A DNA stretch of 64,000 nucleotides from Candidatus Poribacteria bacterium (GTDB lineage Bacteria > Poribacteria > WGA-4E > GCA-2687025): positions 1,280,001 to 1,344,000 of the forward strand of contig OY762492.1 of NCBI GenBank assembly GCA_963665845.2, read 5' to 3'. Both the position numbers and the translations under genes were made by a program. The stretch's first letter is position 1. Each line of letters opens with the position of its first letter. The notes beneath the pieces are model-generated. The model saw only the letters and a program-made list of their open reading frames with translations, was not told the DNA's origin and did no database searches. Shown in pieces: positions 22,991 through 46,741 of the stretch.

Positions 22991-23503
22991 ATGGGCAAAC
23001 CGCTAAACGACGCCGAGGCGTATCTTCAGCGCGGCAACGCTTACCGCGCTAAAGGTGAAATCGACAAGGCGATTGCGGACTACACCTGCTTGCTAGAGAT
23101 GCGTCCGAAGGTCGCGCATCACTTTTACATCCGCGGCGAGGCGCGCCTGCTGGCGCAAGACTGGGACGGCGCGCGGGACGACCTGTCCGCGTCGCTCCTT
23201 CAAGGCGTGGATGTTGCCGCCGAGTTTCAGGCAACCTTCGGAACCGCCGCCGCCTTTGAAGAGAAAACAGGCGTCCATTTGCCGGCAGAGATTGCGGAGC
23301 TGCTGCGCCCGCGGGAGGGCGTCCCGTTTGAGATGGACAAGGACGCGCGCGTCGCCCTGGCGATGCGCTATTACGCGAATGATGAGCTGAGCAGCGGTCT
23401 TGCCGCCCGACTTGCCGGCGTGTCGCGCGTGGATTTTTGGTATCTCATGGGCGATTACGGCCTTTATCTCATCACCGTCACCGACGACGATGACGGGCTT
23501 TGA
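22991..23503 (+). CDS. TPR + UPF0175 putative antitoxin (copy 3, orphan)
   Basis: Near-identical to copy 2. Followed only by ATGTCA (a toxin start remnant) and a REP. Confidence 0.8.
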   Translation: MGKPLNDAEAYLQRGNAYRAKGEIDKAIADYTCLLEMRPKVAHHFYIRGEARLLAQDWDGARDDLSASLLQGVDVAAEFQATFGTAAAFEEKTGVHLPAEIAELLRPREGVPFEMDKDARVALAMRYYANDELSSGLAARLAGVSRVDFWYLMGDYGLYLITVTDDDDGL

Positions 23504-23519
23504 ATGTCATAACCATGTC

Positions 23520-23596
23520 GTCATTCCCGCGTAAGCGGGAATCTAGAGTCCTGCGCAGGGCTAAAACCCCCCTGCCCCCCTTACAAAGGGGGAATC
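23520..23596. repeat. REP-like palindrome plus CCCCC...AAGGGGG repeat
   Basis: GTCATTCCCGCGTAAGCGGGAATCTAG followed by AAAACCCCCCTGCCCCCCTTACAAAGGGGGAATC. Confidence 0.75.
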
Positions 23597-23664
23597 TAGA
23601 AAACCCTGCGCTCTTGCGCCGCCCGCCGTATCGCGCCATAATGGGCGTCAGAAAAGGGCGGCAT

Positions 23665-26600: not shown

Positions 26601-27381
26601 GCCGCTGAGCAGTCTTGCGGAGGCTCGGATCGGCGTCAAAACAGGCGCCAACGAGTTCTTTTTTCTGGACGAAGCGCAGATTCAGAAATGGGGAATTGAG
26701 CCGAAGTTTTTGCATCCCGGTGTCAAAAATTCGAGTGATTGCAAAACGATCCGCATTGATCCGAGGCGGCTGCATCTTCAGCTGTTCATGTGCCATACCG
26801 ATGAAGAGGCGTTGACGGGAACCGCCGCGCTGGAGTATATCCGCTGGGGCGAATCGCAAGGGTTCCATCAACGCCCAAGCTGCCGAGGACGCCCTAGATG
26901 GTATGATTTAGGGGAACGGCGGAAGCCGACGCTTGTGTTCAATCGTACGGTTCATTCAACAGCGAGAACCTTGTATGCGCCTGACGGTTGCTATGCAAGC
27001 AACACTTTTCATGAGGTACATGCGGATTCAGATTTGACGCTGCCGCTGTGCGCCGCCTTGAATTCAACGCCGTTTCAGTTGATGGTGAACACGATGGGGC
27101 GTTCGAATCTCGGCGGAGGCGCGCTGGCAATTGAGGCTTACGAACTTTTAGATTTGCAGTGCCTAGATCCAAAGACCTTTGCCTTTGACGACGCGGCGCT
27201 GTTCGATTCGTCGGCGTGGGATGCGGTCAAGTTGTCCGACGCCCGACGCGCTCTCGACAGCGTCATCTTCGATGCGCTCCATCTGACGCAAGGCGAACGC
27301 GACGGCGTTTATGAGGCGGTCGTCCGTCTGGTGGAGAATCGGCTTCGGAAGGCGAAGAGCGCGCGGGGCCGCTCCCGCTAG
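23665..27381 (+). CDS. Type IIG / Eco57I-like restriction-modification adenine methyltransferase
   Basis: PFLNGGLF, LLGRVFE, GSFYTPR, IIDPACGSGAF (motif I), GNPPY (motif IV), C-terminal TRD. The ORF-track start at 23500 runs through a REP. Confidence 0.9.
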   Translation: MKMMGGKMSLRDEIKRALGAFSGGKLSDNAANLFKTLGYESQRTLNRPDNSPDALLKDFDTEECFDREKARLNEWETADFLFQLTAHELSLPTTDPQPAAENRLDRSVYKSYLFFAVRLKGDEYPRGALARMTREINRLFSMPSFVLFQHGRTLTFSVIDRRPNKIQPERDVLEKVTLIKDIDVQQPHRAHLDILADLSLDILSSTQTFENIMQFHEAWRKTLDASELNKRFFKEIADWHFWAVKTAAFPEDGDPDDSQRRSANGVIRLITRLIFVWFLKEKQLVPEELFDKEEAGRLLNSLEDEESSYYKAILQNLFFATLNQEMNQPGKKKKRDFRNDGQHYNITHLYRYRRLFSDPQAALKLFESIPFLNGGLFECLDKPDPENPKKVLRVDGFSDRSDNQIDVPNELFFAEKKSVDLNEAYGTENKLYSARGVLRILERYKFTVAENTPIEEEVALDPELLGRVFENLFAAYNTETAAAARKEQGSFYTPRGMVNYMVDESLVAYLKNSVNDEERLRKLTAYNDEPHGFADDETERLIEAIDRLKIIDPACGSGAFPMGILHKLVHMLGKLDPLNEQWKQRQIARVDNAIKEVEQIDVYQSRDHVDGAIKELEQEKADIEEAFARNELDYPRKLFLINKCIHGADIQPIAAQIAKLRFFISLIIDQKTDDKRENRGVRPLPNLETRFVAANTLIDLERPEGLHFSDIERKKKDLKAIRDKHFTVRDPRTKEKYRKKDEELRKQISELILKKIGAAREFSRETAEMMANWDPYDQNAVADFFNAEWMFGVEQFDIVIGNPPYVRQEKIDKKLKALLKDKKRYTAFTGKSDLYISFYERGFQLLKERGVHTFICSNSWLDVQYGAPLQEYLLTNAAEGVVCHSEAERAFETADVNTIVSLFRKGKPDELAQMRFITFKGAVGDAEQEEPQERAPSYEQLLQEGTRNGKYAGGKWGGRYLRAPDIYWTILKKGEGKLKPLSSLAEARIGVKTGANEFFFLDEAQIQKWGIEPKFLHPGVKNSSDCKTIRIDPRRLHLQLFMCHTDEEALTGTAALEYIRWGESQGFHQRPSCRGRPRWYDLGERRKPTLVFNRTVHSTARTLYAPDGCYASNTFHEVHADSDLTLPLCAALNSTPFQLMVNTMGRSNLGGGALAIEAYELLDLQCLDPKTFAFDDAALFDSSAWDAVKLSDARRALDSVIFDALHLTQGERDGVYEAVVRLVENRLRKAKSARGRSR

Positions 27382-27650: not shown

Positions 27651-30269
27651 ATGAGCGAAATACAGCCTCACGATAATTCGAGCTTGGCACGGTTTGTTCC
27701 GAGCTTGGCACAGTTTAACGAAAAGCAGCAGCCTATCGTTATTCGGATATCTGCACAGTTTCTGGAATTTGAGGCAGATCCGTATCTGTTCCGCGGCCTT
27801 CCGAAGGAGAGTGCGGATAACAGACCGTATAATGAATCTGATGTCCGGAACCACCTAAGACGCGGTAACGATGCGCATGTGAAAGGCGATCTTGACGACG
27901 CCATCAGAGAATATACCAAAGCGATTGAGCTGGATCCAAACTCTGCCGACGCTTATCGCCTGCGCGGCGTCGCTTACGGCACAAAAGGCGATCTTGACGA
28001 CGCTATCAAAGATTTCAGCAAGGCGATTGAGCTGGATCCAAACTCTGCCGACGCCTATCACAATCGCGGCTTTGCTTACGGCACAAAAGGCGATCTTGAC
28101 GACGCCATCGAAGATTATACCAAAGCGATTGAGCTGGATCCGAGCTCCGTCATCACTTATGTCTTTCGCGGCATGGCTTATGTTCAAAACAGCGAACATG
28201 AAAAAGCCATTGACGACTGCAGCAAGGCAATCGAAATCGATTCAGACAATCTTGACGCCTACAACTTTCGCGGCTGCGCTTATTTCGGAAAAGGCGATCT
28301 CGACAAAGCCATTGACGACTACAGCAAAGCAATCGAAATCGATCCAAACAATGCCATAACCTATGCCAACCGAGGCAGCGCTTATGTCCAAAATAGCGAG
28401 CGTGGAAAAGCCATTGACGACTGCAGCAAGGCAATCGAAATCGATCCAAACGATGCCTTCGCCCATCGGATTCGCGGCGACGCTCATGCCGAAAACAACG
28501 ATTTTCAGGCAGCCATAAAAGATTTTGACAAAGCGGTTGAACTGGACCCAAACGATGTCGGCGTCTATAACAGTCGCGGCTACGCTTATGTCCAAAAAGG
28601 CGATTTTCAGGCAGCCATAAAAGATTTTGACAAAGCGGTTGAACTGGACCCAAACAATATGGCTGTTTATAACAATCGCGGCTACGCTTATGTCCAAAAA
28701 GGCGATTTTCAGGCAGCCATAAAAGATTTTGACAAAGCGGTTGAACTGGACCCAAACAATGCGGCGGTCTATGCCAATCGTGGCAAGGCTTATGCCAAAA
28801 ACAGCGATTTTGAGACTGCCATCGAAGATTATACCGAAGCAATCGAACTGGACCCAAATGATGTCGACATCTATAACAATCGCGGCATTGCTCATGCCGA
28901 AAACAACGATTTTCATGCAGCCTTCGAAGATTTTAATAAAGCGATTGAGATCAATCCAAAATATGCAGAAGCCTATAGCAATCGCGGTGGAGCTTACGCC
29001 CGAAAAGGCGATTTTGAAACAGCCATCATAGATTATGACAAATCGATTAAACTGGACCCAAAAGGAGTCAATGCCTATAGCAATCGCGGTCGGGCTTACG
29101 CCCGAAAAGGCGATTTTGAAACAGCCATCGAAGATTATACCGCAGCGATCGAACTGAACCCGAACGATGTCGGCGTCTATAACAGCCGCGGCATTGCTCA
29201 TGCCGAAAACAACGATTTTGAGGCTGCCATCAAAGATTTTGACAAAGCGATTGAACTGGATCCAAACGAGGACAACATCTATAGAAATCGCGGTCGGGCT
29301 CACGCCATAAAAGGCGATTTTGAGGCTGCCATCGAAGATTATACCGAAGTGATTGAGCTGGACCCAAACGATGTCAATGCCTACCGCAATCGTGGCTTGG
29401 CCTATGCTCAAAACAGCAATTTTGATGCCGCTATCCTGGACTACACAAAAGCGATTGAGCTGAACCCAAACGATGCTGTCGCCTATAACAATCGCGGCTT
29501 GGCTTACATCCCAAAACGCGATTTTGACGCCGCCATCAGAGACTATGACAAGGCGATCGAGATAAATCCAAACTTTGCCGACGCCTATGGCAATCGCGGC
29601 AACGCTTATGCTGGAAACAGTGATTATGATGCGGCTATTCAGGACTACACAAAAGCGATTGAGCTGAACCCAAACGATGCTATCTCCTATAACAATCGCG
29701 GCAGCATTTATTACGCTGGAAAACGCGATTTTGACGCCGCTATCAGAGACTATGGCAAGGCAACAGAACTGGATCCAAACAATGCCGGCGCCTATAATAA
29801 CCGCGCCAATGTTTACCGCACTAAAGGCGAGATCGACAAGGCAATTGAGGACTACAGCCGCTTGCTAGAGATGCGTCCGAAGGTCGCGCGTCACTTTTAC
29901 CTACGCGGCGCAGCGCGGCTGCTGGCAAAAGACTGGGACGGCGCGGGGGATGACTTGTCCGCGTCGCTCCTTCAAGGCGTGGACGTTGCCGCCGAATTTG
30001 AGAAAACCTTCGGAAGTGCCGCTGTCTTTGAAGAGAAAACTGGCGCTCGTTTACCGTCCGAAATTATGGAGCTGGTGCGCCCGCGGGAGGGCGTCCCGTT
30101 TGAGATGGACAAGGAGGCGCGCGTCGCCTTGGCGATGCGTTATTACGCAAACGACGAATTGAGCAGCGGTCTTGCCGCCCGACTTGCCGGCGTGTCGCGC
30201 GTCGATTTTTGGGATCTCATGGGCGATTACGGACTTTCTATCTTTAGCTTTGACGACGACGAGCTTTGA
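27651..30269 (+). CDS. Long TPR protein (about 21 TPRs) with C-terminal UPF0175 antitoxin domain (copy 4)
   Basis: 34-aa repeats AYxNRGxAYxxKGDFxxAIxDYxKAIELDPN. The last ~165 aa match copies 1-3. N-terminal YLFRGL. Confidence 0.9.
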   Translation: MSEIQPHDNSSLARFVPSLAQFNEKQQPIVIRISAQFLEFEADPYLFRGLPKESADNRPYNESDVRNHLRRGNDAHVKGDLDDAIREYTKAIELDPNSADAYRLRGVAYGTKGDLDDAIKDFSKAIELDPNSADAYHNRGFAYGTKGDLDDAIEDYTKAIELDPSSVITYVFRGMAYVQNSEHEKAIDDCSKAIEIDSDNLDAYNFRGCAYFGKGDLDKAIDDYSKAIEIDPNNAITYANRGSAYVQNSERGKAIDDCSKAIEIDPNDAFAHRIRGDAHAENNDFQAAIKDFDKAVELDPNDVGVYNSRGYAYVQKGDFQAAIKDFDKAVELDPNNMAVYNNRGYAYVQKGDFQAAIKDFDKAVELDPNNAAVYANRGKAYAKNSDFETAIEDYTEAIELDPNDVDIYNNRGIAHAENNDFHAAFEDFNKAIEINPKYAEAYSNRGGAYARKGDFETAIIDYDKSIKLDPKGVNAYSNRGRAYARKGDFETAIEDYTAAIELNPNDVGVYNSRGIAHAENNDFEAAIKDFDKAIELDPNEDNIYRNRGRAHAIKGDFEAAIEDYTEVIELDPNDVNAYRNRGLAYAQNSNFDAAILDYTKAIELNPNDAVAYNNRGLAYIPKRDFDAAIRDYDKAIEINPNFADAYGNRGNAYAGNSDYDAAIQDYTKAIELNPNDAISYNNRGSIYYAGKRDFDAAIRDYGKATELDPNNAGAYNNRANVYRTKGEIDKAIEDYSRLLEMRPKVARHFYLRGAARLLAKDWDGAGDDLSASLLQGVDVAAEFEKTFGSAAVFEEKTGARLPSEIMELVRPREGVPFEMDKEARVALAMRYYANDELSSGLAARLAGVSRVDFWDLMGDYGLSIFSFDDDEL

Positions 30270-30761
30270 ATGTCAGTAAAGCCCGTCATCAGCGACACAA
30301 GTCCGCTTATTGCGCTGTCGAAGATCCAGAAGCTTTCGCTTCTTCGGGATCTTTATACAGAGGTTCTGATCCCTAGAGCTGTTGAAAACGAGTTTCTTCA
30401 AAAGTTTCCAATTGCCCGCCAGGAGGAGCTTGACAACGCCCCATGGATCCGAGTCGTTGATTTACAGGACCCTCAAAAAGCAGCGGCAAATGTAAGACTT
30501 GGTCTAGGGGAAGCCGAGGCTTTGGTTCTTGCCGACGAGAAAAAAGCGCGACTCGTTCTTATGGACGAGAAGAAAGGACGGAAGGCAGCCAGAGAGGGCG
30601 AGTTTATCGTTAAGAGAATGGCAGATATTTTGCTGGAGGCAAAGAAGAAACGCCTGATTGACATGGTTGAACCGTATTTAAACGCATTGAAAGCTAAGGG
30701 AGAACGTCTAAGCGATCCGATGATCCATAAAATTCTGAAGGCGGCGGGCGAGGCGGACTAA
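30270..30761 (+). CDS. DUF3368 PIN-domain putative toxin (third intact copy)
   Basis: ISDTSPL, IPRAVENE, LGEAEAL, LMDEKKGR. The usual GTxG reads KRMAD. Confidence 0.85.
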   Translation: MSVKPVISDTSPLIALSKIQKLSLLRDLYTEVLIPRAVENEFLQKFPIARQEELDNAPWIRVVDLQDPQKAAANVRLGLGEAEALVLADEKKARLVLMDEKKGRKAAREGEFIVKRMADILLEAKKKRLIDMVEPYLNALKAKGERLSDPMIHKILKAAGEAD

Positions 30762-35117: not shown

Positions 35118-35917
35118 CGCCGCCTGCCGTATTTGACATCCAGCTCCCGAAGACGCGCCAAAGCCTTTTCCGTCGGCTCCTTAAATTCGCCCGACTCATA
35201 AAAATCGCGCGTCTTTGCGTTCAGGTTGCCGTAGAAACGGCGCGTGGATTCGTTAGAACTGCCGCGCCAAAGCTCCGCCGGAATGATCGAATCTTCGCTT
35301 AAATACGGGCGGTCGGCGAACCCGTAATAAATCTGCGCCGTTTTGCGTTCGCGCTGCGTGGGGCGGGTCGTCGCCGTGTGGAGCGCGCCGATGTTGAAAA
35401 GGATGCCCGTTCCCGCTTCGCCGTACAGATCGCGCTTTCCGCCGCGCTCCAGCTGCGGATCGTTTTCAAGGATCGGCTCATCGACCGATTCGGGCGAGAT
35501 GGAAAAGCAGTGCGTCGTCTCGTCCACATCCGTAAAATACAGCATCAGCTGCAGAAAACCGACGCGCAGCGGATGCTCCATCCAGTGTCGCGGCCCGTCC
35601 CTGTGCCACGCCTGATGAAACTCGCCCTCGTAAGCCGCCATGTTGCGCAGGCAGATCTCCGAAAAGCATGGGTTTGGACCCATCAGCTGCCACAGCGCCT
35701 CCATCACAACGGGATGCCGCACAATGCGGTCGAACGCCGGCGAGGTGAATAAGGCGTCGCAGTTGACCGTCTGATGATGCCCGATCCGGTACCAGTGTCC
35801 GTTGGCGCGGTCGCGTTCAAACAGCGCCGTGAACTCCTCCACCTCAGCGTCGGTCAAGATTTTTCCCAGCGACGCGTATCCGTTCTGTTTAAAGAAATGC
35901 ATCTGGACGTCGGTCAT
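35114..35917 (-). CDS. PhyH-family Fe(II)/2-oxoglutarate dioxygenase
   Basis: FFKQNGY, WHRD (HxD), GEAGTGILFNIGALH...R. Confidence 0.85.
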   Translation of the reverse strand: MTDVQMHFFKQNGYASLGKILTDAEVEEFTALFERDRANGHWYRIGHHQTVNCDALFTSPAFDRIVRHPVVMEALWQLMGPNPCFSEICLRNMAAYEGEFHQAWHRDGPRHWMEHPLRVGFLQLMLYFTDVDETTHCFSISPESVDEPILENDPQLERGGKRDLYGEAGTGILFNIGALHTATTRPTQRERKTAQIYYGFADRPYLSEDSIIPAELWRGSSNESTRRFYGNLNAKTRDFYESGEFKEPTEKALARLRELDVKYGRRR

Positions 35918-36801
35918 GGGGTCTCCTCTTCGTTTGGGAGAATGCGCTGCCGGAGACGCGCCATCTCCCGTTCCACTTCCATATTTTGGACTCTCTGATC
36001 AAGCCCGCCGTTCAACTCCACGCCTTCGCCAGGGATGAATTGCGCTCTCATCTCAGCGATCGCCGCGTTCACTTCGTTATGGTCGTCCGCGACTTCATGC
36101 TGGATCATTGATGCCGCTTTTTTAAATCCTTCCTGCTGCTTCGCCGCTTTGATTTCCGCAATTTGTATCCGATAATCTTCCGCTTTCATCTCCATTTGGT
36201 TCAGAGCCTCTGAGCAGTCGTTGATGTTTTGGTCAATCAGCGCGCATAATTCTTCGGCGTTGGCTTTTCGGACGAGAAGGCGCCGCGCGTCGTCTTCCAG
36301 ATCGTCCCGCAAAAACTGCATGGCTGCCATTTCGTAATCCACGATGTTTTGCTGATGCTGACCCAATTCATCCCGCATCTCTTTCAATTTGGTTTGAAAT
36401 TGTTCGATCATGTTGACGAGGCGGATGCGAGCTTTGGATAATTGAAGGATCGCCTTATGGTATTTTTTCCTTCTGCTCACCCGCTGATTTTCTCGATGAA
36501 CAGACACGATCCGATAGACCGCCAATATGAAAATGAGAAGAAACAGCGCCGCGGCGGCATACGCTGCAACCTCGGCGAACCATGGGGAAGCAGGATCCGA
36601 CGCGATCGGAATCACGTATCTGAAGACCGTATAGACCTCTATGATGAACGAGAGCGCCGCCGCAAAGATCCACAACTCGAAGCGCGACTTATGGATGAAT
36701 TGCTTGATGCGCCGAAAACTCCTCTGAATTCGATACCGCAGCGAACCAGGCTTATTGGTCCAATCTCTCGGCAGTAAAGGCGGGAAATGCGGCAATTTCA
36801 T
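35914..36801 (-). CDS. Two-TM-anchored PspA/IM30-like coiled-coil protein
   Basis: MKLPHF start, two TM helices, YEMAAMQFLRDDLEDDARRLLVRK (PspA hairpin-like), C-terminal EVEREMARLRQRI. Confidence 0.6.
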   Translation of the reverse strand: MKLPHFPPLLPRDWTNKPGSLRYRIQRSFRRIKQFIHKSRFELWIFAAALSFIIEVYTVFRYVIPIASDPASPWFAEVAAYAAAALFLLIFILAVYRIVSVHRENQRVSRRKKYHKAILQLSKARIRLVNMIEQFQTKLKEMRDELGQHQQNIVDYEMAAMQFLRDDLEDDARRLLVRKANAEELCALIDQNINDCSEALNQMEMKAEDYRIQIAEIKAAKQQEGFKKAASMIQHEVADDHNEVNAAIAEMRAQFIPGEGVELNGGLDQRVQNMEVEREMARLRQRILPNEEETP

Positions 36802-38027
36802 TCGGATAAATCTTTCGCAAGCTCCATGATGTTGCGCATCTGATTGACGAGCGGACCGTAATCCTGCGTAAACTGTTTGGCGATTTGAGAAAGCTGTTCA
36901 TGCAGCTCATTCATCGATCTGGTCAACGCCGCTTCCGTCGCCTTTTCGAGAGAATGCAACGCATCCGCGCGTTCTCTGATCATCGCATCGATCGAATCGC
37001 CCGCCTTAACCGCGCCGGACTGGAGCGCCGCATTCACCTCCTCTTGGCTCTGTAGTATCAACTCGCGCTGATCCTGCATCCCTGTGTTGATCTCATTCGC
37101 CGCTTCTGTAAACGCCTCGATGGCGCTCATCATCAGAGGCGTGGAGGCGTTTAGGTTTTCGGTTCCTTTCTGAATTGCATGCTGCGCAGGTTCAAGCATA
37201 TCGGCGGCTAGATTAGCCGATTCCACAATCTGCGCAGTTCCTCTCTCCATCTGCGTGACGATCGAATCGAGTCCTGTCAGCGCATGCTCTAGCCGCTCTG
37301 CAATCGTTGAAAACCGTTCGCTTCTTTCAACGACGCTTGTCAGCGTCTGTTCGCAAGCGTCAAGCGCCATGACAGCGCGTTCGATCTGCGCAGTTTGCTC
37401 CTGAATCATCTGCTGATGCTGCCGCTGCCACTCCAGCAAATTGTTGGTTGATTCCGCCAATTTGCGAAAACTTTCTCCGCACTGCCTGCTGATTTCGGCG
37501 TTGAATTTATCGATTGTGCCGGCGAGCGCTTTTTCAATCGCTTTGGCGCATTTTTCAGACACCTCCGCTTCAAACGCTTTTATGTCGCTGCGCATCACTT
37601 GGACTTCGGCGGTGAGCGTCGATACGCCCTCTTTCACCGTTGCGACAATCTCGGCCATACCCGCGTTCCCTTCCGCGAGGGATTCGGAGATCGATTTGAT
37701 CATGACGACCGCTTCCGGCGGTTTTTCATAGGCTTTGGCATGGACAATCTTGAGCAAAACCGCCGTACCCATTCCAAACACGGAGGTGATGAAGGCGAAG
37801 CGCAGCCCCGACAGCAGACTTTGGACGCTGCCCACAAGATTCGCGTTCGGCGCGGACGGGCTGATATTTAAGCCGAAGAGACCGACGCAGATGCCGACGA
37901 ACGTTCCAAGCACGCCCAGCATCGTCGCCAGATTCGGGAGCCGCTCCTTCTGCTCCAACCTTCGATTTGCCAATAGGACGATCAGAACGATCCCTGCGCA
38001 CCAGGCGATAGAAAACGTTAGGTTCAT
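36798..38027 (-). CDS. zorA: ZorA-like MotA-type protein (copy 3, 409 aa)
   Basis: LGVLGTFVGI, GLRFAFITSVFG, helical tail, C-terminal FTQDYGPL. Confidence 0.8.
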   Translation of the reverse strand: MNLTFSIAWCAGIVLIVLLANRRLEQKERLPNLATMLGVLGTFVGICVGLFGLNISPSAPNANLVGSVQSLLSGLRFAFITSVFGMGTAVLLKIVHAKAYEKPPEAVVMIKSISESLAEGNAGMAEIVATVKEGVSTLTAEVQVMRSDIKAFEAEVSEKCAKAIEKALAGTIDKFNAEISRQCGESFRKLAESTNNLLEWQRQHQQMIQEQTAQIERAVMALDACEQTLTSVVERSERFSTIAERLEHALTGLDSIVTQMERGTAQIVESANLAADMLEPAQHAIQKGTENLNASTPLMMSAIEAFTEAANEINTGMQDQRELILQSQEEVNAALQSGAVKAGDSIDAMIRERADALHSLEKATEAALTRSMNELHEQLSQIAKQFTQDYGPLVNQMRNIMELAKDLSE

Positions 38028-38061
38028 GTGCGATCCGTTATTGAAGTTGTCAGATTAAATT

Positions 38062-38853
38062 TCATTGACTGCGCCATTTTTCCAGATATTTTTTGATCTT
38101 TTCGACGACGCCCTCAATCTCTTTCAGTTTCTTTTCCGAGTTGATTCGGACGCGAAACTCCACGCGGCGCGATTTAGACGGGTCTTCATGATTGCCGCTC
38201 TGGGCAATCAGTTTTCCGCCGCTGTCCAGAAGCTTGCTGGACGATAAACCGTTGGCGGTCAGTTTGCTCAATATCCATGCTTGATCGTTCTGAACCGCCT
38301 CTTTTTCGAGTCCGATCACATATTCTAGGACGGAGCGGGTTCGATCCTGCGACAGCTCCATGTTGTTGATGTAGGCGATTCTGGACGTCTCGGCGCCTTC
38401 CCACTCGCTGGATGTATGCCCCTCAATTCGAATCTCTTCAATGTGTCCGCGGAATTTTGAATCGGATACAACCGCAATATACCGCGGAAAAAATTCGTCC
38501 ATGATGCGGAGAAATTTCTCTGGCAGTCTGGAGCTTCCCCTTTCAAAAAACTCTTCAGGGTTAAAGCGTATGTACAGCGTTTCTCGGTCAAGGCTGGCGT
38601 TCCATTTTTCCAGGTCCGCCTCAAATTCACTGTTTAGAGCCTTGTATAACTCATCCTGTAAATCGCGGTGAGATTCTGAAATATCCTTAACATCTTCAAC
38701 CAGCCCCTGAGCGTCCTTCGTTTTCTGCACCGCGTCCACCATGAAACTGATGGCGACAAAAAGAAAAATCACCATCAGCCCCGCCATCATGTCCGATATT
38801 GAAATCCATTGACCCTCGCGCTGATTGTCGGAGGCGCCTAAAAAGGTGCGCAT
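38062..38853 (-). CDS. zorB: ZorB-like MotB/OmpA protein (copy 4)
   Basis: WISISDMMAGLMVIFLF, EIRIEGHTSSEW, LSQDRTRSV, ANGLSSS, SRRVEFR. Confidence 0.9.
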   Translation of the reverse strand: MRTFLGASDNQREGQWISISDMMAGLMVIFLFVAISFMVDAVQKTKDAQGLVEDVKDISESHRDLQDELYKALNSEFEADLEKWNASLDRETLYIRFNPEEFFERGSSRLPEKFLRIMDEFFPRYIAVVSDSKFRGHIEEIRIEGHTSSEWEGAETSRIAYINNMELSQDRTRSVLEYVIGLEKEAVQNDQAWILSKLTANGLSSSKLLDSGGKLIAQSGNHEDPSKSRRVEFRVRINSEKKLKEIEGVVEKIKKYLEKWRSQ

Positions 38854-38909
38854 CGTTCAATCCCTAGTTTGCGTTAAAATGCCTGCTTGAAAATGCGTCT
38901 GCGCGTCGG

Positions 38910-39551
38910 TCATACGGCGTCCTCCCCGCTGGGTTGAAGGCGTTCTCGGAGACGCGTCATCTCCTGTTCCACCAGCTCATCCGGTTCGTTCGCCGGCGCC
39001 TTGTTCAGCTCGCGCTCCAGCCCCTTCTTCTCCGCTTTGATGTCCATCTCATGCGCGATGCCGCTGCGCCTGTTCTGCGTCTGCGCCGCCTCATGTTTCA
39101 GTATCCACATCTCATGCTGCCGTTTTAACCGTTCAATTTCAAACATATCTTCGTCGTTGCTCATCTTCATCGCCGCCGTCAACGTTTCAATGGAGCGTAT
39201 GTCGTCTTCGATTCGTTCGCATGCCTCCAGCGCCGTCAGTTTGAGTCGGAGATGTTTCTTCGCGTTCTGCTCTTCGTCTAGCAATAGGGCGTTTTCCGCC
39301 GCTTTTTGCGCCTGTTCCGCCTTCCGTTCGTTTTTTTTCAATTCCTCGCGCCAATGCGCTACCGTCTTGTTCGCCTCGCGGATAAATCTTCTCCGCTCCC
39401 CGATCTTTTTGACGCCGTTGACGATCGCCCCTAAGAATTTCTTGTCTGTTTTGGAGGAACGGCGCGGCGCCTGTTTCGGCCAAGGGGATGTCGCCATCCG
39501 TTTGCGCAAACCGGCAAAGTGTCGGTTTTGTCCAAAATCCGGCAGCTTCAT
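38910..39551 (-). CDS. PspA/IM30-like coiled-coil protein with ZorE-like N-terminus
   Basis: MKLPDFGQNRHFAGLRKRM start, KAAENALLLDEEQNAKKHLRLK, C-terminal VEQEMTRLRERL. Confidence 0.6.
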   Translation of the reverse strand: MKLPDFGQNRHFAGLRKRMATSPWPKQAPRRSSKTDKKFLGAIVNGVKKIGERRRFIREANKTVAHWREELKKNERKAEQAQKAAENALLLDEEQNAKKHLRLKLTALEACERIEDDIRSIETLTAAMKMSNDEDMFEIERLKRQHEMWILKHEAAQTQNRRSGIAHEMDIKAEKKGLERELNKAPANEPDELVEQEMTRLRERLQPSGEDAV

Positions 39552-41053
39552 TCTAAATCCTTCGCCATCTGAACCACCTCGCGCAGCCTTTCGGTCAGCG
39601 GTCCGTAATCGTCCACAAACTTTTCCGACAGCTCCGCCAACTGACGACCCAGCGTGATCAGCGACTGCTTCAGCGCCGCCTCAAGACTTTTCTCCAGATT
39701 GTTCAACGCCCGCGCCCGCTCCATGAACAGCCGATCCACGCTCTCGCCGATCTTTTCAGCCGCCGCGGCGACCGCTTTATTCATGCCGGCGATGTTTTCA
39801 TCCACCTTCGGCAGCTCGCGGTTCGCCGAGGAGGCGGCGTCCGCAAACGCTTTCCATTCGTCCGTCAAACGGGAGGCGCCGTCGGTCAACGCTTTCAGCG
39901 CCGGCGCTAGTTCCCGCGCCGGCTCCTCCACCGCCGCCAGCGTTTCCTGCCGCGCGGACATATGCTGAATAACCGCCTCTAGACGCTCCGCGGTCTCGAC
40001 AAACAGACCGCTTTGCGCGACCAGTTTGCCCATCGCCCCTTGAATCTCCGAAAGCGCCTGCGAACCCGCCTCCAGCGCCTCTTGCGAGCGGCGGCTCCGT
40101 TCGTCTAGGTTTTTGCTGATTTCGTCCGCCGCCGTTTGAAACGCGCCTGACGCCTGCTTTAAACCGCTCTCTAGCTGTGGAATCGTTTGACCGGCTGTTT
40201 TGGCTGAATCGGCGACGGACCGAAACTCGCCGCCCAGATTGCCCGCCCCTTCCCGCAGCGCTTCCAGCGCCGACGCCAGCTGCGCCGCCGGCTCAACGAG
40301 GCGCGCGATGCGCTCCTCCCGCGTCTCCAGCTCCTCCAATGCGCCGTCCAGACGATCCGCGATGGACGCGAACGCGCCGCTGCGCTCCACAAACGCGCTC
40401 ATCGCCTCCTCCGACGCCTTCAGCGCCGCGATGGAGGCGTCCAGCTGCTTCGACTGCTCCTCCACCTGTTTTGCATGCGCCGTCTGCCATAGATGAAGAC
40501 GGCCGGCAGTGTCGTTCAGCTGACGAAAACTCTCGGCGCATTGGGCGTTGATCTCGGCGTTGAAACCCTCGACAAGGCTCTCCATCGCGGCGGTCAGCGC
40601 CGCCGCCGATTTATCGGCAACCTCCGCCTCAAAGGTTTTGAAATCGCCGCGCAGCTTCTCCGACTGGTCAATGAGGCGCGCGTTGCCGTCGTTGAGCGCC
40701 TGAACAAGCGCGTCCAGCCGCTCCGTCAACGGCTCCAGCGGATCGGACGCATCCTCGTCCGTTTGCTTCATTTTAAGAAAGACGGCGGTACCCATGCCGA
40801 ATACAGAGGTGATGAAGGCGAAGCGGAGACCGTTTAAAAGGCTGCTGGCGCCTTTCTCCAGCTGGGCGATGCCGCCCGTTTCGGACAGCTGAATCCCAAG
40901 CAGGCTCCAACAGACGCCGACGAAGGTGCCGAGAACGCCCAGCATCGTCGCCAGATGCGGCAGCCGCTCTTTTTCCACATTCGGTTTGCGGCTTAGCCAA
41001 AAGACCGCCGCGACGATGCCGACGCACCAGAGAGCGGGAAAAAGATAGTTCAT
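39548..41053 (-). CDS. zorA: ZorA-like MotA-type protein (copy 2, 501 aa)
   Basis: LGVLGTFVGV, GLRFAFITSVFG, helical tail, LGRQLAELSEKFVDDYGPLT. Confidence 0.8.
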   Translation of the reverse strand: MNYLFPALWCVGIVAAVFWLSRKPNVEKERLPHLATMLGVLGTFVGVCWSLLGIQLSETGGIAQLEKGASSLLNGLRFAFITSVFGMGTAVFLKMKQTDEDASDPLEPLTERLDALVQALNDGNARLIDQSEKLRGDFKTFEAEVADKSAAALTAAMESLVEGFNAEINAQCAESFRQLNDTAGRLHLWQTAHAKQVEEQSKQLDASIAALKASEEAMSAFVERSGAFASIADRLDGALEELETREERIARLVEPAAQLASALEALREGAGNLGGEFRSVADSAKTAGQTIPQLESGLKQASGAFQTAADEISKNLDERSRRSQEALEAGSQALSEIQGAMGKLVAQSGLFVETAERLEAVIQHMSARQETLAAVEEPARELAPALKALTDGASRLTDEWKAFADAASSANRELPKVDENIAGMNKAVAAAAEKIGESVDRLFMERARALNNLEKSLEAALKQSLITLGRQLAELSEKFVDDYGPLTERLREVVQMAKDLE

Positions 41054-41062
41054 TCGCGCGTC

Positions 41063-41890
41063 TCAATCGGCGTCAAAGTTTCCCTGCGCCTCCTTGAATT
41101 CGTCATACAGCTCTTCGATCATCTCGATGCGTTTTTCGGCGCTGATGCGGACGCGGAACTCAACGCGCCGCGACCGCCGCTTGTCTTCGCCCTTGCCGCT
41201 TATTTTAATCAGATTTCCGTTCCTGTCCAACCGCTTGCTGAACGACAAGCCGTTCGCGGTCATGCGGTCTTGGATCCATTCCAGGTTGTCTCTCACGACG
41301 CGCTTTGGAATCTGCAGAACATATTGGAGCGTTGAACGGGTGCGGTCTTGGGACAGCTGCATGTTGAAAAAATACGCCTCATCGGGCGAGGCGCTTTCGT
41401 TCCATTCGCTGGAGGTATGCCCCTCAATGCGTATCTCTTCGATGTCGCCCCGATACTTCTCCTGGGCGAGAATATGCACATAGCGCGGGAAAAAGTCGTC
41501 CAGTATCGCGCGAAAACCAGCCGGCAGACGCGAGCTGCCCTGCCGAAAAAGCATGCCGGGGTCCTGAAACCGAATCGAAAGCGTGTCGGGATCGATCTCG
41601 GCGTTCCACTTTTGGAGATCGTTTGTCCGCTCAAATTCTTGGCGCAGGTCTTGCAGCAGCTCCTTCTGAAGATTGCGGTAGGTTTCCGCCGCCTCCTGGA
41701 CGCTGTCGCGCTGGCGTTCGGCTGTTTTCCGCTGCCTGTCCGCCTCCGCTTTTTTCTGCGCCGCGTCGATCATAAAACTGATTGCAATGAACAGAAAAAC
41801 CGCCATCAGCACGGTCATCATATCGGAGATGGAGAGCCACTGTCCCTCGTTTTGATCGGGGTTTCGGCGGAAGAGATTGCGCATCGTCAA
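41063..41890 (-). CDS. zorB: ZorB-like MotB/OmpA protein (copy 3)
   Basis: WLSISDMMTVLMAVFLF, EGHTSSEW, LSQDRTRS, SRRVEFR. Confidence 0.9.
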   Translation of the reverse strand: MTMRNLFRRNPDQNEGQWLSISDMMTVLMAVFLFIAISFMIDAAQKKAEADRQRKTAERQRDSVQEAAETYRNLQKELLQDLRQEFERTNDLQKWNAEIDPDTLSIRFQDPGMLFRQGSSRLPAGFRAILDDFFPRYVHILAQEKYRGDIEEIRIEGHTSSEWNESASPDEAYFFNMQLSQDRTRSTLQYVLQIPKRVVRDNLEWIQDRMTANGLSFSKRLDRNGNLIKISGKGEDKRRSRRVEFRVRISAEKRIEMIEELYDEFKEAQGNFDAD

Positions 41891-41899
41891 GACATCCCC

Positions 41900-42718
41900 C
41901 TAGCGTCCGGCGGATACTGGATTCCTCGCCATGTGACCATGTCCAGGCTGCTTTCGGTGGCACCAATGGCACAAAGCCTTCAGGTTGGTGCGGTCGTTGT
42001 TCGCCTTATTTCCGTCGATGTGGTGAACATGCAGACGTTGTCTCTGTACTCGGAAATTAATTAGGCATTGTTCACATACCCACCCGACAGACTCCCGGTA
42101 TTGGAGCGATATTTCATGCCAATCTTCTGGATATACGTTGGCAGGGGCTGTTTCGTTATTGTGCAGCGGGAGCCATGTGGTCGGCGTTTCCCGATACATC
42201 TCAAAAAACTCATCCAGCCTGAAATTACGATAGATTTCGTCCCAATCCCGTCCGTATTGGCGATAGCCTTTATACCGCAGCTTAGCGAGGCAGTTTTTAC
42301 AGACATTCAAGCGGACATGTTCGGTTTGGACGCCGGCGTACCCGTTGTTAACATTGATCTGGAAGATGCCGTCTGTCCGATTTGAGACGACATATCGATG
42401 CCCTCTACCGCCCTTGATCATGCCACTGAGCGTTCCGCAGTGCGCGATGTGAAATTTCGGTCTTGATCCTAAGGAGCTGACATCGCGGATATAGATCAGC
42501 ACCCTCTCTCCATTGATCGCGAGAGTGCCGTCAGATCCTATGACGAGATCATCGGGGTTCACCTCCAGGCCTTCGCGAGACGCGAGCGTTTTACGAAGCT
42601 CGTTCGGGTCCAGGGATTTCCATCCGGCCCCGCCTCGTTCCTGCTCCACATATTCGGCGCCCATCGCGCGGCGCAGGAGATTCAGACGCGCATGTTCACG
42701 GAAATTGGGCAGCTTCAT
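41900..42718 (-). CDS. zorE: ZorE-like HNH endonuclease
   Basis: KFHIAHCGTL, VCKNCL, C-terminal CEQC...LHVHHIDGNKANNDRTNLKALCHWCH. Lies downstream of zorAB. Confidence 0.85.
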   Translation of the reverse strand: MKLPNFREHARLNLLRRAMGAEYVEQERGGAGWKSLDPNELRKTLASREGLEVNPDDLVIGSDGTLAINGERVLIYIRDVSSLGSRPKFHIAHCGTLSGMIKGGRGHRYVVSNRTDGIFQINVNNGYAGVQTEHVRLNVCKNCLAKLRYKGYRQYGRDWDEIYRNFRLDEFFEMYRETPTTWLPLHNNETAPANVYPEDWHEISLQYRESVGWVCEQCLINFRVQRQRLHVHHIDGNKANNDRTNLKALCHWCHRKQPGHGHMARNPVSAGR

Positions 42719-43425
42719 TATGCAATTCCTCCCTCTTCGACAATGCGGGTGATGCGCTTCTCGGCGTTGATGGCGATTCGGAATTCAAGGCGGCGCGACC
42801 GCATTTTGTCCTCGTTTCCGTTTTTCAGCAAGCGCGGTTTGCTTGATGAAAGCCCGTTGGCGGTCAGTCGGCTTAGCATCCACTGCCGCTCTCTGGGTAT
42901 CGGCGTACGCGAGATGCCCAGGACAAATTCCAACGCGGCGCGGGCGCGGTTTTGGGTCAGCTCCATGTTGCGGATATACGCCTCTTCAGAGGTTGCAGTT
43001 TTGCTCCAGTCGCTGGATGTGTGCGCTTCAATGCGTATTTCTTTGATGGCGTCCCGATACTTTTCGCGGGCGAGTATCCGTATGTAACGCGGGAAGAAAT
43101 CGTCCAGGATCGCGCGCAGCGGCGTTTGAAGCTTTGAGGCTTCTGCTTGAAAGAGCATGTCGGGCGTTTGAAAACGCACCGAAAGGGCGACGGCGTCCAG
43201 CTCGGCTTGCCACTCGTCCAGATCGTTTCTGAATTCATCGTAGAGATCTTTGTACAGACCTGCCTGAAGACGTTGATGGCCAACGGCAATCGCCTTGAGT
43301 CCATCTCGAACGCTCTCCGCTCTCTTTCTTTGGGTACGCTCACGGATCAGCGAGCCGATGAGGACGATAAGGATTGCGACAGCAAAAACCCCCATGCTTT
43401 CAACCGGCATATTCTCAAAAGGCAT
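42718..43425 (-). CDS. zorB: ZorB-like protein (copy 2) with atypical TM helix
   Basis: OmpA-like domain closely similar to copy 1 (EAHTSS, LTQNRARA, SRRLEFR), but no WISISD TM motif. Confidence 0.8.
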   Translation of the reverse strand: MPFENMPVESMGVFAVAILIVLIGSLIRERTQRKRAESVRDGLKAIAVGHQRLQAGLYKDLYDEFRNDLDEWQAELDAVALSVRFQTPDMLFQAEASKLQTPLRAILDDFFPRYIRILAREKYRDAIKEIRIEAHTSSDWSKTATSEEAYIRNMELTQNRARAALEFVLGISRTPIPRERQWMLSRLTANGLSSSKPRLLKNGNEDKMRSRRLEFRIAINAEKRITRIVEEGGIA

Positions 43426-43500: not shown

Positions 43501-44253
43501 TCATTCAACGATTCCTCCCTCTTGGATAATGCGGACGATCTGTTCCTCGGCGTTCGTACGGACGCGAAACTCAACGCGCCGAGACTGTATTTTATCTTCT
43601 TCGTCGCCATTTTTGAAGCGGAGCTTGCTGGACGAAAGCCCGTTGGCGGTCAAATGCTTCTTGACCCAATCCCGCTCTTTCGGCATCGGAGATTTCTGGA
43701 TATTTAAGACGTGCTTTAACACGGCGCGCGTCCGATCCTGGGACAGTTTCATGTTTAGAATATATGCCTTATCCTGCGAAACGGACACATTCCACTCGCT
43801 GGACGTATGCCCTTCAATGCGTATCTCTTCGATGTCGTCCCGATATTTTTCCTGATCGTCCAGGGCGAGAATTCGAATATAGCGCGGGAAGAAATCGTCC
43901 AGGATGCCTTCAAACCGCTCCTGAAGATCTGCTTTTCCTATCTCAAAAAGAACGTCCGGCGCACGAAAACGCACCGAGAGCGTCGGCTTGTCGATGGTGG
44001 CGTCCCACTCGTCTAGATTGTCTTTGAACTCATCAAGCAGATCGTTGTACAGATCGTTCTGAAGACGCTGGTAGGTGACGGCGATCTCTTTGATGCTGTC
44101 TCTTTCCACCTCGATTTTGTTCTTTTTCTCCTGCGCGTCCAGCATGAAACTGAGCGCGACAAACAGGAAAATCACCATGAGACCGGCCATCATGTCGGAG
44201 ATGGAGATCCATTGTCCCTCGTCCTGCTGTTCGGGAAGCTGCTGGTCATTCAT
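43501..44253 (-). CDS. zorB: ZorB (copy 1)
   Basis: WISISDMMAGLMVIFLF, EGHTSSEW, LSQDRTRAV, SRRVEFR. Confidence 0.9.
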   Translation of the reverse strand: MNDQQLPEQQDEGQWISISDMMAGLMVIFLFVALSFMLDAQEKKNKIEVERDSIKEIAVTYQRLQNDLYNDLLDEFKDNLDEWDATIDKPTLSVRFRAPDVLFEIGKADLQERFEGILDDFFPRYIRILALDDQEKYRDDIEEIRIEGHTSSEWNVSVSQDKAYILNMKLSQDRTRAVLKHVLNIQKSPMPKERDWVKKHLTANGLSSSKLRFKNGDEEDKIQSRRVEFRVRTNAEEQIVRIIQEGGIVE

Positions 44254-44287: not shown

Positions 44288-46741
44288 TCAAGATCGGCTC
44301 CGAGAAGTCGCCGACGATCTTGGCGGGGAGGGGTCCTCTAAACCTTCCGCTATCCGCACAACTCTGCGCAGTTGCTCCGTAAGCGGCGTGTAATCTTGAA
44401 CAAACCTTGTCGAAAGCGACACCAGCTGACTCGCAAGTGAATTGAGCGCTTTGGTAAGCTCTTCGCCGAGCGCATTGTCCAGCTCCTCCGTCTGCTTCGC
44501 CATGTTTTCGCCTGCCGTTCTGACGAATTCCGCTATATGGTTGCTCATCTGCGTTGCGGATTCTGTGACGCGCCGGTTCATGGCATTGTGAGCTTGCTCA
44601 ATCCGTTGGCTTGTGTTGTTGACGCTGAGCAGAGCTTCGGCGGCGGCGCTTGAGATGGATCCGCTAGCGTTCTGGACGCTTTCGCTCATCTCGGCTTGAA
44701 CTCTCTGAAATTCCGTTATCAGCTCCATCTGGCTTTTCATGTTTTCAAGCGCATCCGCGGCGGCGCTGACAAATCCATTGACAGCGGCTTTGATCTGTTC
44801 ATTGACAGTCTCTTGGGTTTGCGCGATTTGATACCGCTGGTTCGCCATACTTGCGAACGCGCTGTCCGCGGCGTTTTTGAATCCGTCCGCGGTCGCTTCG
44901 ATTTGTGCGTTCACGTTCGTTTGCGTCTGTTCGATCTGCGTTCGCTGGTTTTCCATGCTCGTCAGCGCCGTTTGAGTCGATTTCTCAAATCCAGCCGCTG
45001 TTTGCTCAATGCGGCTTTGCTGCGTTTTCAGACCCTCAACCGACGCTTCAGCGGCGTCCTTGAATCCATCCGCCGCTTCTTGTATCTGCGCATTCACACC
45101 CTGCTGAAACGACTGCATCTGATTTCTCTGCTGACTCATGCTGTCAAGCGACGCCGCAACCGATTGTTGAAAATCTGCCGCCGTTTGCTTTACTCCTGCA
45201 TTGACGGCATCTTGATTTTCTTTAATTCGTTCGCGCTGCTTGTCCATACTCTCAACCGACGCATCAACCGATTTTTTGAATTCGTCTGCGGCATTCGTCA
45301 CCCCCGAGTTGACGATCTCTTGATTCTTTTCAATCAGTTCGCGCTGACCATCCATGCTCGCCAATGACGCATCAACCGAATTCTTGAAGCCAGCCGCTGT
45401 CTCCTGTATCTGCGCGCCAACCTGCTTCTGGTTTTCCGCCATCAACGTCTGCTGTTCCTCCAGGCTCGTTTTCAGTTGGGCGTTCACCTGTTCCTGATTC
45501 TTTTCCAGCTGACCAGCTTGATTCTTGATACTTTCCAACGCGGCGCCGGCGGATTCCGTAAACCCGTTCGCCGTTTCCTGTATCTGCGCGCCGACCTGCT
45601 TCTGGTTTTCAGCCATCAATGTCTGCTGTTCCTCCAGGCTGGTTTTCAGTTGGGCGTTCACCTGCGCCTGATTCTTTTCCAGCTGGTCAGCTTGATTCTC
45701 GATACTTTTCATTGCGGCGCCGGCGGATTCCGTAAATCCATTCGCCGTTGTCGTCAGCCCGCTTGTGATCTGCTCAATGTTCTGCTGTATCGATGGGAAG
45801 GCGCTTTCCGCCCGTTCGCCGAGATTCGCCAGCGCCGCAAGATGCGCGTTCATCGCCTCGTTGCGCGCGCTTAGATCGCCCAGCGCCTCGTCTAGCCGGT
45901 CGGCGACGCCCGCAAACGTCTCGCTCCGCTCAACGACGACTCCCATCGACTCCTTACAGCTCTCCAGCGCCTCCATCGACTGCCGCAGCTGCCCGACCAT
46001 CGCCTCCACCTGCTCCTTGTAGTTTTCCTGCCAAGTGAGCAGCTGCCCGACCGCTTCATTGAGCTGCTTGAAGTTGTCGCCGAACTGCTCATTGATTTTG
46101 GCGTTGAAATCGCGCATCACCTCCTCCAGCGCCTCAATGAGCGCCTTGGAGTTGTTCTCCGCCATCGATTCGGCAAACTCCCGAAATTCCTTGATGAGAT
46201 CGTCCTGCTTGTCGGAAAAGGTTGTGCGCATCTTCTGCATCTGCGTCAACAGGGTTGTGTCGCCTTCACCGGTCAGGGCGCGCTCCACCGCCCCGATCTT
46301 GTTTAAAAGCGTCGACTCGCCCTCTCCCGTGACCGCATTCGCGACCGCCGCCGTGTTTTCGTTGATTTCCTGAAAGCCGTTCTTCAGTAGATCGGCAAGC
46401 GTGTCAAGCGTGGCGCCTTCCGTCGCCTGTCCCTCTGTCTTGCCCCGCCCCGAGATCTTGCCCAGAAAGAATCCTCTCAGTACGACTGCAGTAAGAATTC
46501 CAGCTACGGAGGTGATGAACGCAGTACTGAGACCCTCCAGCAGACCAGGTATGCTGCCGTTGATGTCCGCTACGTCGAATCCCCGTAGCCCGTACAGGAT
46601 TCCTCCGAAGGTTCCGAGAATGCCTAAGACCGTCGCAAAGTTGGGAATGGACGCTCTGTGAGGATTCCCCCGCAGCCGAATCGCAAGGATGATTGAAACA
46701 ACGATGATGAACGCGCTATACGCCAGCGCTAAGTTCAGCAT
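44288..46741 (-). CDS. zorA: ZorA (copy 1, 817 aa) with repeat-expanded tail
   Basis: LGILGTFGGI, GLSTAFITSVAG, FNAKINEQFGDNFKQLNEAV..L..WQENYK, C-terminal FVQDYTPLT. Confidence 0.9.
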   Translation of the reverse strand: MLNLALAYSAFIIVVSIILAIRLRGNPHRASIPNFATVLGILGTFGGILYGLRGFDVADINGSIPGLLEGLSTAFITSVAGILTAVVLRGFFLGKISGRGKTEGQATEGATLDTLADLLKNGFQEINENTAAVANAVTGEGESTLLNKIGAVERALTGEGDTTLLTQMQKMRTTFSDKQDDLIKEFREFAESMAENNSKALIEALEEVMRDFNAKINEQFGDNFKQLNEAVGQLLTWQENYKEQVEAMVGQLRQSMEALESCKESMGVVVERSETFAGVADRLDEALGDLSARNEAMNAHLAALANLGERAESAFPSIQQNIEQITSGLTTTANGFTESAGAAMKSIENQADQLEKNQAQVNAQLKTSLEEQQTLMAENQKQVGAQIQETANGFTESAGAALESIKNQAGQLEKNQEQVNAQLKTSLEEQQTLMAENQKQVGAQIQETAAGFKNSVDASLASMDGQRELIEKNQEIVNSGVTNAADEFKKSVDASVESMDKQRERIKENQDAVNAGVKQTAADFQQSVAASLDSMSQQRNQMQSFQQGVNAQIQEAADGFKDAAEASVEGLKTQQSRIEQTAAGFEKSTQTALTSMENQRTQIEQTQTNVNAQIEATADGFKNAADSAFASMANQRYQIAQTQETVNEQIKAAVNGFVSAAADALENMKSQMELITEFQRVQAEMSESVQNASGSISSAAAEALLSVNNTSQRIEQAHNAMNRRVTESATQMSNHIAEFVRTAGENMAKQTEELDNALGEELTKALNSLASQLVSLSTRFVQDYTPLTEQLRRVVRIAEGLEDPSPPRSSATSRSRS
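45402..45749. repeat. 174-bp tandem duplication inside zorA1, adjacent to degenerate 108-bp units
   Basis: TCCTGTATCTGCGCGCC... starts at 45402 and 45576; the 58-aa unit occurs twice. Confidence 0.9.

Follow-up and report, generated by a model that had tools for sequence, protein, structure and literature searches.

A Zorya type II defence locus of Candidatus Poribacteria, lying within the 64,000-nucleotide stretch of contig OY762492.1 that was analysed here (hereafter the window), encodes the nuclease effector ZorE and two further proteins in effector position, X1 and X2, that begin with the same few residues. On the evidence of sequence comparison, this common start is the 20-residue N-terminal segment conserved across the ZorE family, reused on the PspA/ESCRT-III-like protein X1 after duplication of the Zorya II operon. 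The segment, here called the tag, may well be a portable recruitment tag that binds the conserved tip of the ZorA tail, in which case ZorAB motors would power not only nuclease but also membrane-remodelling outputs; our confidence in this reading is evenly balanced. The features at the centre of the argument are as follows, numbered along the window:

41900..42718, minus strand: zorE, HNH nuclease of 272 amino acids (aa); PADLOC model ZorE2 from residue 1 at an expectation value (E) of 4.2e-80, and Pfam HNH
42659..42718, minus strand: ZorE N-terminal tag, aa 1-20; predicted helix at 10-18, then a low-confidence linker
38910..39551, minus strand: X1, 213 aa; ZorE-type tag and soluble PspA/ESCRT-III-like body
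39492..39551, minus strand: X1 N-terminal tag, aa 1-20, at the position of PspA helix alpha0; profile E 1.2e-10; ratio of non-synonymous to synonymous rates (dN/dS) 0.13
35914..36801, minus strand: X2, PspA-like paralogue of X1, 295 aa; predicted membrane helices at aa 41-59 and 78-96
36784..36801, minus strand: residual hexapeptide MKLPHF of X2; helix part of the tag absent

The shared N-terminus and its conservation

The motif MKLP.F occurs four times in the six reading frames of the 3.98 Mb genome; three of these are the starts of ZorE, X1 and X2, and the fourth is a 9-codon stretch. A first-pass annotation of the window, made by a model, had placed the three open reading frames and their starts correctly, and had also rightly seen that each start overlaps the upstream stop, by 1 nucleotide (nt) in ZorE (TAATG, after zorB2) and by 4 nt in X1 and X2 (ATGA, after zorA2 and zorA3). 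Such an overlap sets only the ATG and one more base, and therefore does not explain LPxF; fixing merely 4 bases, it was rejected as the cause of the motif. Chance was likewise ruled out as its origin by the genome-wide count together with the ranking of the X1 start by a scoring matrix.

The motif belongs to a longer family signature. Among 40 ZorE homologues (41 were found, and a 190-aa fragment was excluded), M1, L3, F6, M19 and G20 are at least 90% conserved, and the N-terminus follows the consensus MKLP[DN]F-x5-[LF]xxL[RK]xxMG before a variable linker leads to the nuclease. PADLOC ZorE models align from residue 1, and in the predicted structure of the window's ZorE the helix at 10-18 is separate from the nuclease core, with the low-confidence linker between them. 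A structure search found no solved ZorE structure, its best match (E 0.003) being another HNH nuclease. The residues that ZorE and X1 have in common, MKLP.F........LR..M, bear out the alignment proposed in the first-pass annotation.

When a scoring matrix built from 28 distant ZorE N-termini was applied to the 52,673 Met-start windows of the genome, X1 ranked second, after ZorE, indicating that the full 20-residue motif is present; most of its score comes from positions 2-6, with positions 7-20 in the top 1.4%. The X1 tag also matches the tag profile at E 1.2e-10, X1 itself being a row of that profile. For X2, positions 7-20 do not rise above background, being equalled or outscored by 94% of windows, and no tag-profile match was obtained at E 1. 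The suggestion that all three proteins share an N-terminus thus holds for the whole motif in ZorE and X1, and for the hexapeptide only in X2.

Comparison with a second genome of the same genus (G001) revealed three non-synonymous differences over 44 sites in X1 residues 2-20 (dN/dS 0.13), against 85 over 407 sites in the X1 body (dN/dS 0.39; tag versus body, Fisher p 0.026), at similar synonymous rates. Between the tag codons of ZorE and X1, 81% of synonymous sites differ (pS 0.81, saturated), and the family residues are still held in common. Purifying selection on the X1 tag, together with this saturation, argues that the tag is not a neutral scar. The X2 N-terminus is 95-100% identical among X2 orthologues and therefore has some function, though not that of the ZorE helix.

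The proposed partner of the tag is also constrained. The ZorA2 tip has a dN/dS of 0.11 against G001, compared with 0.31 in the mid-tail (p 0.0005). All three ZorA C-termini contain F..DY.PL, as had been claimed; beyond that motif, the claim of a common tip weakens in ZorA3, which retains 10 of 22 conserved positions versus 14-22 in 42 other tips. This most degenerate tip lies directly upstream of the helix-less X2, an association that represents a single event.

Relationship of X1 and X2 to PspA

X1 and X2 are paralogues that resemble PspA/ESCRT-III proteins in sequence, with filament formation and membrane remodelling being predicted activities. The two proteins share 28% identity over 155 aa (E 1e-7), so that the three different effectors of the first-pass annotation reduce to a nuclease on the one hand and a PspA-like body, present as two paralogues, on the other. 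X1 is soluble, and X2 has its two predicted membrane helices. A separate gene in the genome (C1:2641856) passes the Pfam PspA_IM30 model and is matched by both proteins, with phmmer giving E 1.9e-6 for X2 and 0.002 for X1. A profile of seven X1/X2 bodies aligned with one of 25 PspA homologues at 96% probability (hhalign, E 4.2e-9, 141 columns); the 25 were gathered with a profile containing the genome's own PspA, and 6 of 6 checked pass PF04012. The match begins at about X1 residue 69. In the ESM Atlas, the top clusters carry PF04012 (0.92).

The X1 model has a predicted local distance difference test score (pLDDT) of 79, and the first 14 listed Foldseek rows are all Vipp1 or PspA, with a best E of 1.5e-3 and none below 1e-3. 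In VIA-align, PspA came second (Z 12.9, root-mean-square deviation 3.1, 123 aligned residues), tied with unrelated coiled coils, and the fold alone is therefore not decisive. The N-terminal amphipathic helix alpha0 of PspA is absent from both proteins, the ZorE tag (X1) or membrane helices (X2) standing there instead. A PspA tree groups X1 with X2 (SH-aLRT 94) on branches so long that no donor can be named. Besides themselves, three homologues are available for X1 and two for X2, X1 having been found in 2 of 61 related genomes; the X1 orthologue sets came from separate searches that overlap, and they are not independent.

Organisation and duplication of the locus

On the minus strand the gene order is zorA1, zorB1, zorB2, zorE, zorB3, zorA2, X1, zorB4, zorA3, X2 and a PhyH-family gene. 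The remaining Zorya features are:

44288..46741, minus strand: zorA1, type II ZorA of 817 aa with a long tail; PADLOC model ZorA2 E 2.9e-102
44342..44539, minus strand: ZorA1 tail tip, aa 735-800; 20 of 22 conserved positions
43501..44253, minus strand: zorB1, canonical ZorB with the WISISD membrane motif; PADLOC model ZorB2 E 1.3e-92
42718..43425, minus strand: zorB2, additional ZorB copy, with no WISISD aspartate motif in its membrane helix; absent from G001
41063..41890, minus strand: zorB3; PADLOC model ZorB2 E 2.4e-84
39548..41053, minus strand: zorA2, 501 aa; tail tip at 39557-39754, 18 of 22 conserved positions, dN/dS 0.11
38062..38853, minus strand: zorB4, sister paralogue of zorB3; tree support 96/93
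36798..38027, minus strand: zorA3, 409 aa; degenerate tail tip at 36810-37007, 10 of 22 conserved positions

All zor genes of the window match type II models best in PADLOC, with E 3e-102, 3e-58 and 9e-46 for the three ZorA copies, of the kind with a MotA-like membrane part and a long helical tail, against the type II ZorA model; all three score below the cut-off of the NCBIfam model, which is centred on E. coli. The membrane aspartate motif W[IL]SISD and an OmpA-like domain occur in zorB1, zorB3 and zorB4. The effector of the first module is the HNH nuclease ZorE (PADLOC ZorE2 model E 4e-80), a named close homologue of which, at 65% identity, is from Candidatus Poribacteria, and the window's ZorB copies likewise cluster with Poribacteria ZorB. 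At the effector position of the second and third modules, X1 and X2 contain neither a ZorE core nor an HNH domain. No further zorA, zorB or zorE copies were found in the genome beyond this locus.

The third module is a later duplicate of the second, because ZorB3 and ZorB4 are sisters (support 96/93; all four copies form one group at 87/92, below the starred level) and because the third module is missing in relatives. G001 carries zorA1 (split), zorB1, zorE, zorB3, zorA2, X1 and phyH, and lacks both zorB2 and the third module; in contigs of related strains from runs X5 and X6, the X1 end is joined directly to the phyH side. An assembly artefact was ruled out, the paralogues being only 26-56% identical and contigs supporting the arrangement. 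One contig of a run labelled X2 spans the whole locus without differences, and may be the source of this DNA.

Three further observations concern these genes. The product of zorB2 (42718-43425) keeps its OmpA-like domain with a different membrane helix, and could form mixed or inactive motors. The zorA1 tail contains an internal duplication of about 60 codons (window ~45400-45760), and total ZorA lengths are 817, 501 and 409 aa. In a related strain (run X6, record 23, window 41884-42702), 489 letters stand at zorE against 817 here, perhaps encoding a shortened ZorE.

Occurrence of the tag on other proteins

A DNA pattern specifying tag positions 1-6, 12 and 19 yielded at least 118 stretches in the genome collection, and 80 with flanks were analysed after removal of one duplicate locus. 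Positions 15-16 were left unselected by the pattern; among the 80 listed matches, 44 of the 47 that fit the family at these positions lie next to zorAB, compared with 1 of the 33 that do not, under a rule widened after inspection to admit N15 and H16. The 44 tagged proteins directly behind zorB comprise 17 full ZorE, 19 HNH-less forms of 157-202 aa (one of them a frameshifted ZorE) and 8 others, namely two cut by contig ends, three proline-rich single-pass membrane proteins, one shorter single-pass protein and two of 95 aa. In a ZorB tree, the tagged body types found after zorAB occupy separate clades. The portability proposed in the first-pass annotation is supported here, since one and the same segment stands at the head of several unrelated proteins encoded immediately behind zorAB, in separate ZorB clades, and is under purifying selection in X1.

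The check that the annotation had proposed, a profile of the ZorE N-terminus with a list of the bodies fused to it, used 36 positions and returned 255 cluster representatives at E 0.001. Of the best 150, 26 are full ZorE, 63 have a ZorE body that is short or partial, 34 are of insufficient length to call and 27 are others. Among these 27 are five single-pass proteins, four HD-phosphohydrolases, one 95-aa protein, several likely frameshifted ZorE pieces and four long repeat proteins, which were rejected as chance matches summed from weak ones. Bryobacterales matches of 138-142 aa and short frames from the pattern scan were also rejected, having no helix motif and no zorAB. A scan of 401 genomes of one class found four tags, including another proline-rich membrane protein behind zorAB.

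The reverse test, starting from the ZorA tip, gave 38 loci, some of them near-identical and four without a third gene in view; 31 of the other 34 third genes start with the tag. Searches of 176 genomes from the window's phylum recovered the tag from 24 and the tip from 42, and several of the misses that were read have divergent N-termini. A metagenome scan with the ZorA2 tip returned three loci only. Overall, the tag accompanies type II ZorA almost always, as judged from these searches, and effector swaps are real but uncommon.

In eight of nine pairs of the single-pass proteins, residues 2-20 are 84-100% identical and the remainder 43-59% (95% versus 89% in the ninth), a contrast inflated by the fact that the members of this family were found through the tag. 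Such proteins follow zorAB in five alphaproteobacterial loci (L029, L052, L078, L229 and L073), and have a proline-rich outer part resembling TonB in layout only; the ESM Atlas gives only weak, lead-level TonB-like neighbours. A 17-member ZorB clade from marine Gammaproteobacteria (L008, L014, L015, L044, L083 and others) has as its third gene an HNH-less ZorE remnant of 157-190 aa among housekeeping-type neighbours, possibly a domesticated Zorya. The 95-aa tagged protein follows zorAB at L031:8001-8285 and L065:7773-8057, where a PP2C phosphatase gene and a kinase-like gene lie upstream of zorA.

A tagged HD-phosphohydrolase occurs in 3 of the 98 plasmid records with a homologue, and most plasmid homologues of this HD/YfbR-like phosphohydrolase lack the tag. 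The tagged genes, on Beijerinckiaceae plasmids (L053:6999-8057, minus strand; L038:6028-6765, plus strand; L227:12001-13065, plus strand), encode candidate Zorya decoys. The tagged gene lies between DUF3991/toprim and UvrD genes, with WGR, zincin-like and methylase genes nearby; the syntenic Methylosinus HD gene has no N-terminal extension. Plasmid regions of this kind are rich in anti-defence genes. In viral contigs, the DNA pattern gave one match, a 37-codon frame, and the 30-aa tag one weak phage match at E 0.7; thus, no phage mimic was found.

Proposed recruitment by ZorAB and competing explanations

Published work provides a framework for a recruitment tag. ZorAB is described as a 5:2 ion-driven motor, and ZorE as cytoplasmic until infection, when it moves to the membrane through ZorAB (PMC11890865). 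In type I, deletion of the ZorA tail tip is reported to abolish co-localisation of ZorD (PMC11946911). From co-occurrence and co-conservation, we infer that the ZorA tail tip is the partner of the tag. The tag would then be the part of ZorE that is recruited, and upon envelope damage each ZorAB motor would recruit its own tagged partner. The ZorE nickase would reach DNA through ZorA1B1, and X1 would accumulate at the lesion through ZorA2B3; there it would polymerise as an ESCRT-III-type filament and patch or remodel the membrane, making the second module a repair or remodelling output beside the nuclease. X2, the later duplicate, is predicted to stay in the membrane through helices of its own, which would leave the tag helix and the ZorA3 tip free to drift, and the third module could be regarded as a derivative anchored in the membrane for which the helix has become dispensable. 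A complex prediction with four ZorA2 tips (66 aa) and X1 residues 1-30, both supplied with alignments, scored 0.02 and 0.01 against a mark of 0.32; its controls were not folded and it used four copies versus a natively pentameric tail, and it was counted neither for nor against binding.

A bolder form of this proposal, which we regard as doubtful though worth stating, makes type II Zorya a plug-in platform, in which the 20-residue tag would be enough to dock any protein on the ZorA tip. Lineages would swap outputs, including ESCRT-III remodellers in this genus, single-pass proline-rich membrane proteins and HNH-less remnants; the plasmid HD protein would be a decoy that blocks Zorya, and X1 an ESCRT-III brought by the motor to the site of phage entry, where it would seal or cut the membrane.

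Several results weigh against recruitment to the ZorA tip. E. coli ZorE is reported to bind phosphatidylethanolamine (PE)/cardiolipin bilayers alone, the signal not being raised when ZorE was added to ZorAB (PMC11329788). ZorE is also reported to be able to act without ZorAB in one synergy setting (10.64898/2026.05.12.724681). The X1 tag occupies the place of the membrane-binding helix alpha0, and its residues 10-20 carry a charge of +4. Body swaps are infrequent: a ZorE core is present in 33 of the 34 third genes selected through the tip. Tag conservation in the 95-aa and HD families does not exceed that of the body (53-58% versus 53-69%), and among three other X1 orthologues it is 74-79% identical versus 73-85% for the body; the X1 tag is therefore best described as constrained, but not clearly more than the rest of X1. 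A ZorA-II tip was not found in the three tagged-HD genomes (0 of 4 searched, one being a chance-match genome; the assemblies may be incomplete), nor on the one tagged-HD plasmid tested. These HD proteins count against an obligate link to ZorA, unless they are decoys. As to the remodelling output, neither X1 nor X2 matches PF04012 at E 0.1, their orthologues reaching 9.7-16.2 bits against a gathering threshold of 33.9, and a long helical hairpin like that of X1 matches many folds.

The serious rival, absent from the first-pass annotation, is that the tag is an amphipathic lipid-binding helix that holds ZorE at the inner membrane and replaces alpha0 in X1, with ZorA not being its partner. We consider this somewhat unlikely. 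It would account for the binding of ZorE to bilayers without ZorAB, for the position of the X1 tag, since alpha0 is the reported membrane anchor of PspA (10.1101/2025.06.13.659447), for the loss of the helix part in X2 alongside the gain of membrane helices, and for tagged HD proteins where no ZorA tip was found. The composition of the tag fits it less well: in 46 tags, residues 1-20 have a mean net charge of +0.5 (range -2 to +4), and residues 10-20 a hydrophobic moment of 0.37, versus 0.59 for residues 1-11 of the PspA encoded in this genome. The near-invariant L3, F6, M19 and G20 are more suggestive of a specific interface. Moreover, the tag is retained on single-pass proteins, whose own membrane span would make a lipid anchor redundant, and ZorE is described as mostly cytoplasmic without infection (PMC11890865).

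Another explanation is that the tag binds some other partner that these hosts have in common, such as the short cytoplasmic end of ZorB, a second tagged subunit in an oligomer, or a protease or chaperone controlling the amount of the protein. The invariable position of the tag, at or within 3 residues of the N-terminus, would suit such a role, as would the presence of zorB as the usual upstream gene and the tags on plasmid proteins with no ZorA tip nearby. It is nonetheless improbable, given that ZorE is reported to be monomeric (PMC11890865) and that a strict link between tag and zorAB is not expected of a general host signal.

A fusion scar, in which genes landing in the zorE slot retain the coupled start and first codons with no function in the new proteins, is the least probable explanation: it draws on the three overlapping starts, the six residues left in X2, the unexceptional conservation of the tag in the 95-aa and HD families and the instability of the locus (zorB2 without its aspartate motif, zorA1 split in G001), and it is opposed by an overlap that constrains only 4 bases, by the low dN/dS of the X1 tag at normal dS with family residues kept despite saturated synonymous sites, and by a retained part that ends at the same M19 in unrelated bodies. 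The replacement scar offered as an alternative in the first-pass annotation thus fits a fusion origin and perhaps X2, and fails for X1, whose tag is under purifying selection.

Relation to known systems

The locus resembles known Zorya type II systems in its type II ZorA and ZorB, in an HNH ZorE of the ~280-aa subfamily (PADLOC PDLC00642/00643) and in a first module that keeps the usual zorA-zorB-zorE order with one extra zorB. It differs in having three zorA and four zorB genes, and two added zorB-zorA-effector modules in which the effector is PspA-like rather than a nuclease. X1 and X2 share with PspA/Vipp1/IM30, the bacterial ESCRT-III proteins, a long helical hairpin and a C-terminal helix; unlike these, they have the ZorE tag (X1) or the hexapeptide, a basic helix and two membrane helices (X2) in place of alpha0, and they are encoded behind zorA rather than in a psp operon, with a separate pspA elsewhere in the genome. 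Zorya types I and III (ZorC/ZorD, ZorF/ZorG) are a precedent for ZorAB motors paired with different soluble effectors, and type I also for a tail tip needed for recruitment, of ZorD (PMC11946911). Those are, however, separate subtypes with their own ZorA, whereas here the body changes within type II while the tag and ZorA tip are kept.

A literature search, made over main texts and largely open journals, turned up neither a docking motif described at the ZorE N-terminus nor a Zorya locus containing PspA, and no work joining PspA/ESCRT-III with anti-phage defence; ZorAB and PspA appeared together only in an unrelated paper. A word search of the main text of a PspA gene-context survey gave no mention of Zorya (PMC11237479), and the ZorE mutants discussed in the accessible part of 10.64898/2026.05.12.724681 begin at H90. 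The locus would accordingly be a new, previously undescribed variant of Zorya type II, although an earlier mention is possible.

Published work on effector recruitment by the ZorA tail shows recruitment and, in its accessible parts, names no contact. Two short conserved segments are singled out by the locus and the scans: ZorE residues 1-20 and the last ~45 residues of ZorA. If these bind each other, the outputs of Zorya II would be swappable and variants without a nuclease would escape annotation tools; a bacterial ESCRT-III would be linked to a motor, and tags carried by plasmids would become candidate anti-Zorya factors. If the tag binds lipid instead, the reported membrane binding of ZorE would be explained.

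Neighbouring genes

Elsewhere in the window, four TPR-UPF0175 genes (20781-23503 and 27651-30761), three of them followed by a DUF3368 (PIN-type) gene, form repeated toxin-antitoxin-like pairs that flank an Eco57I-type methylase gene at 23500-27381. A further gene, at 19426-20670, encodes an HNH domain fused to a DNA methylase.

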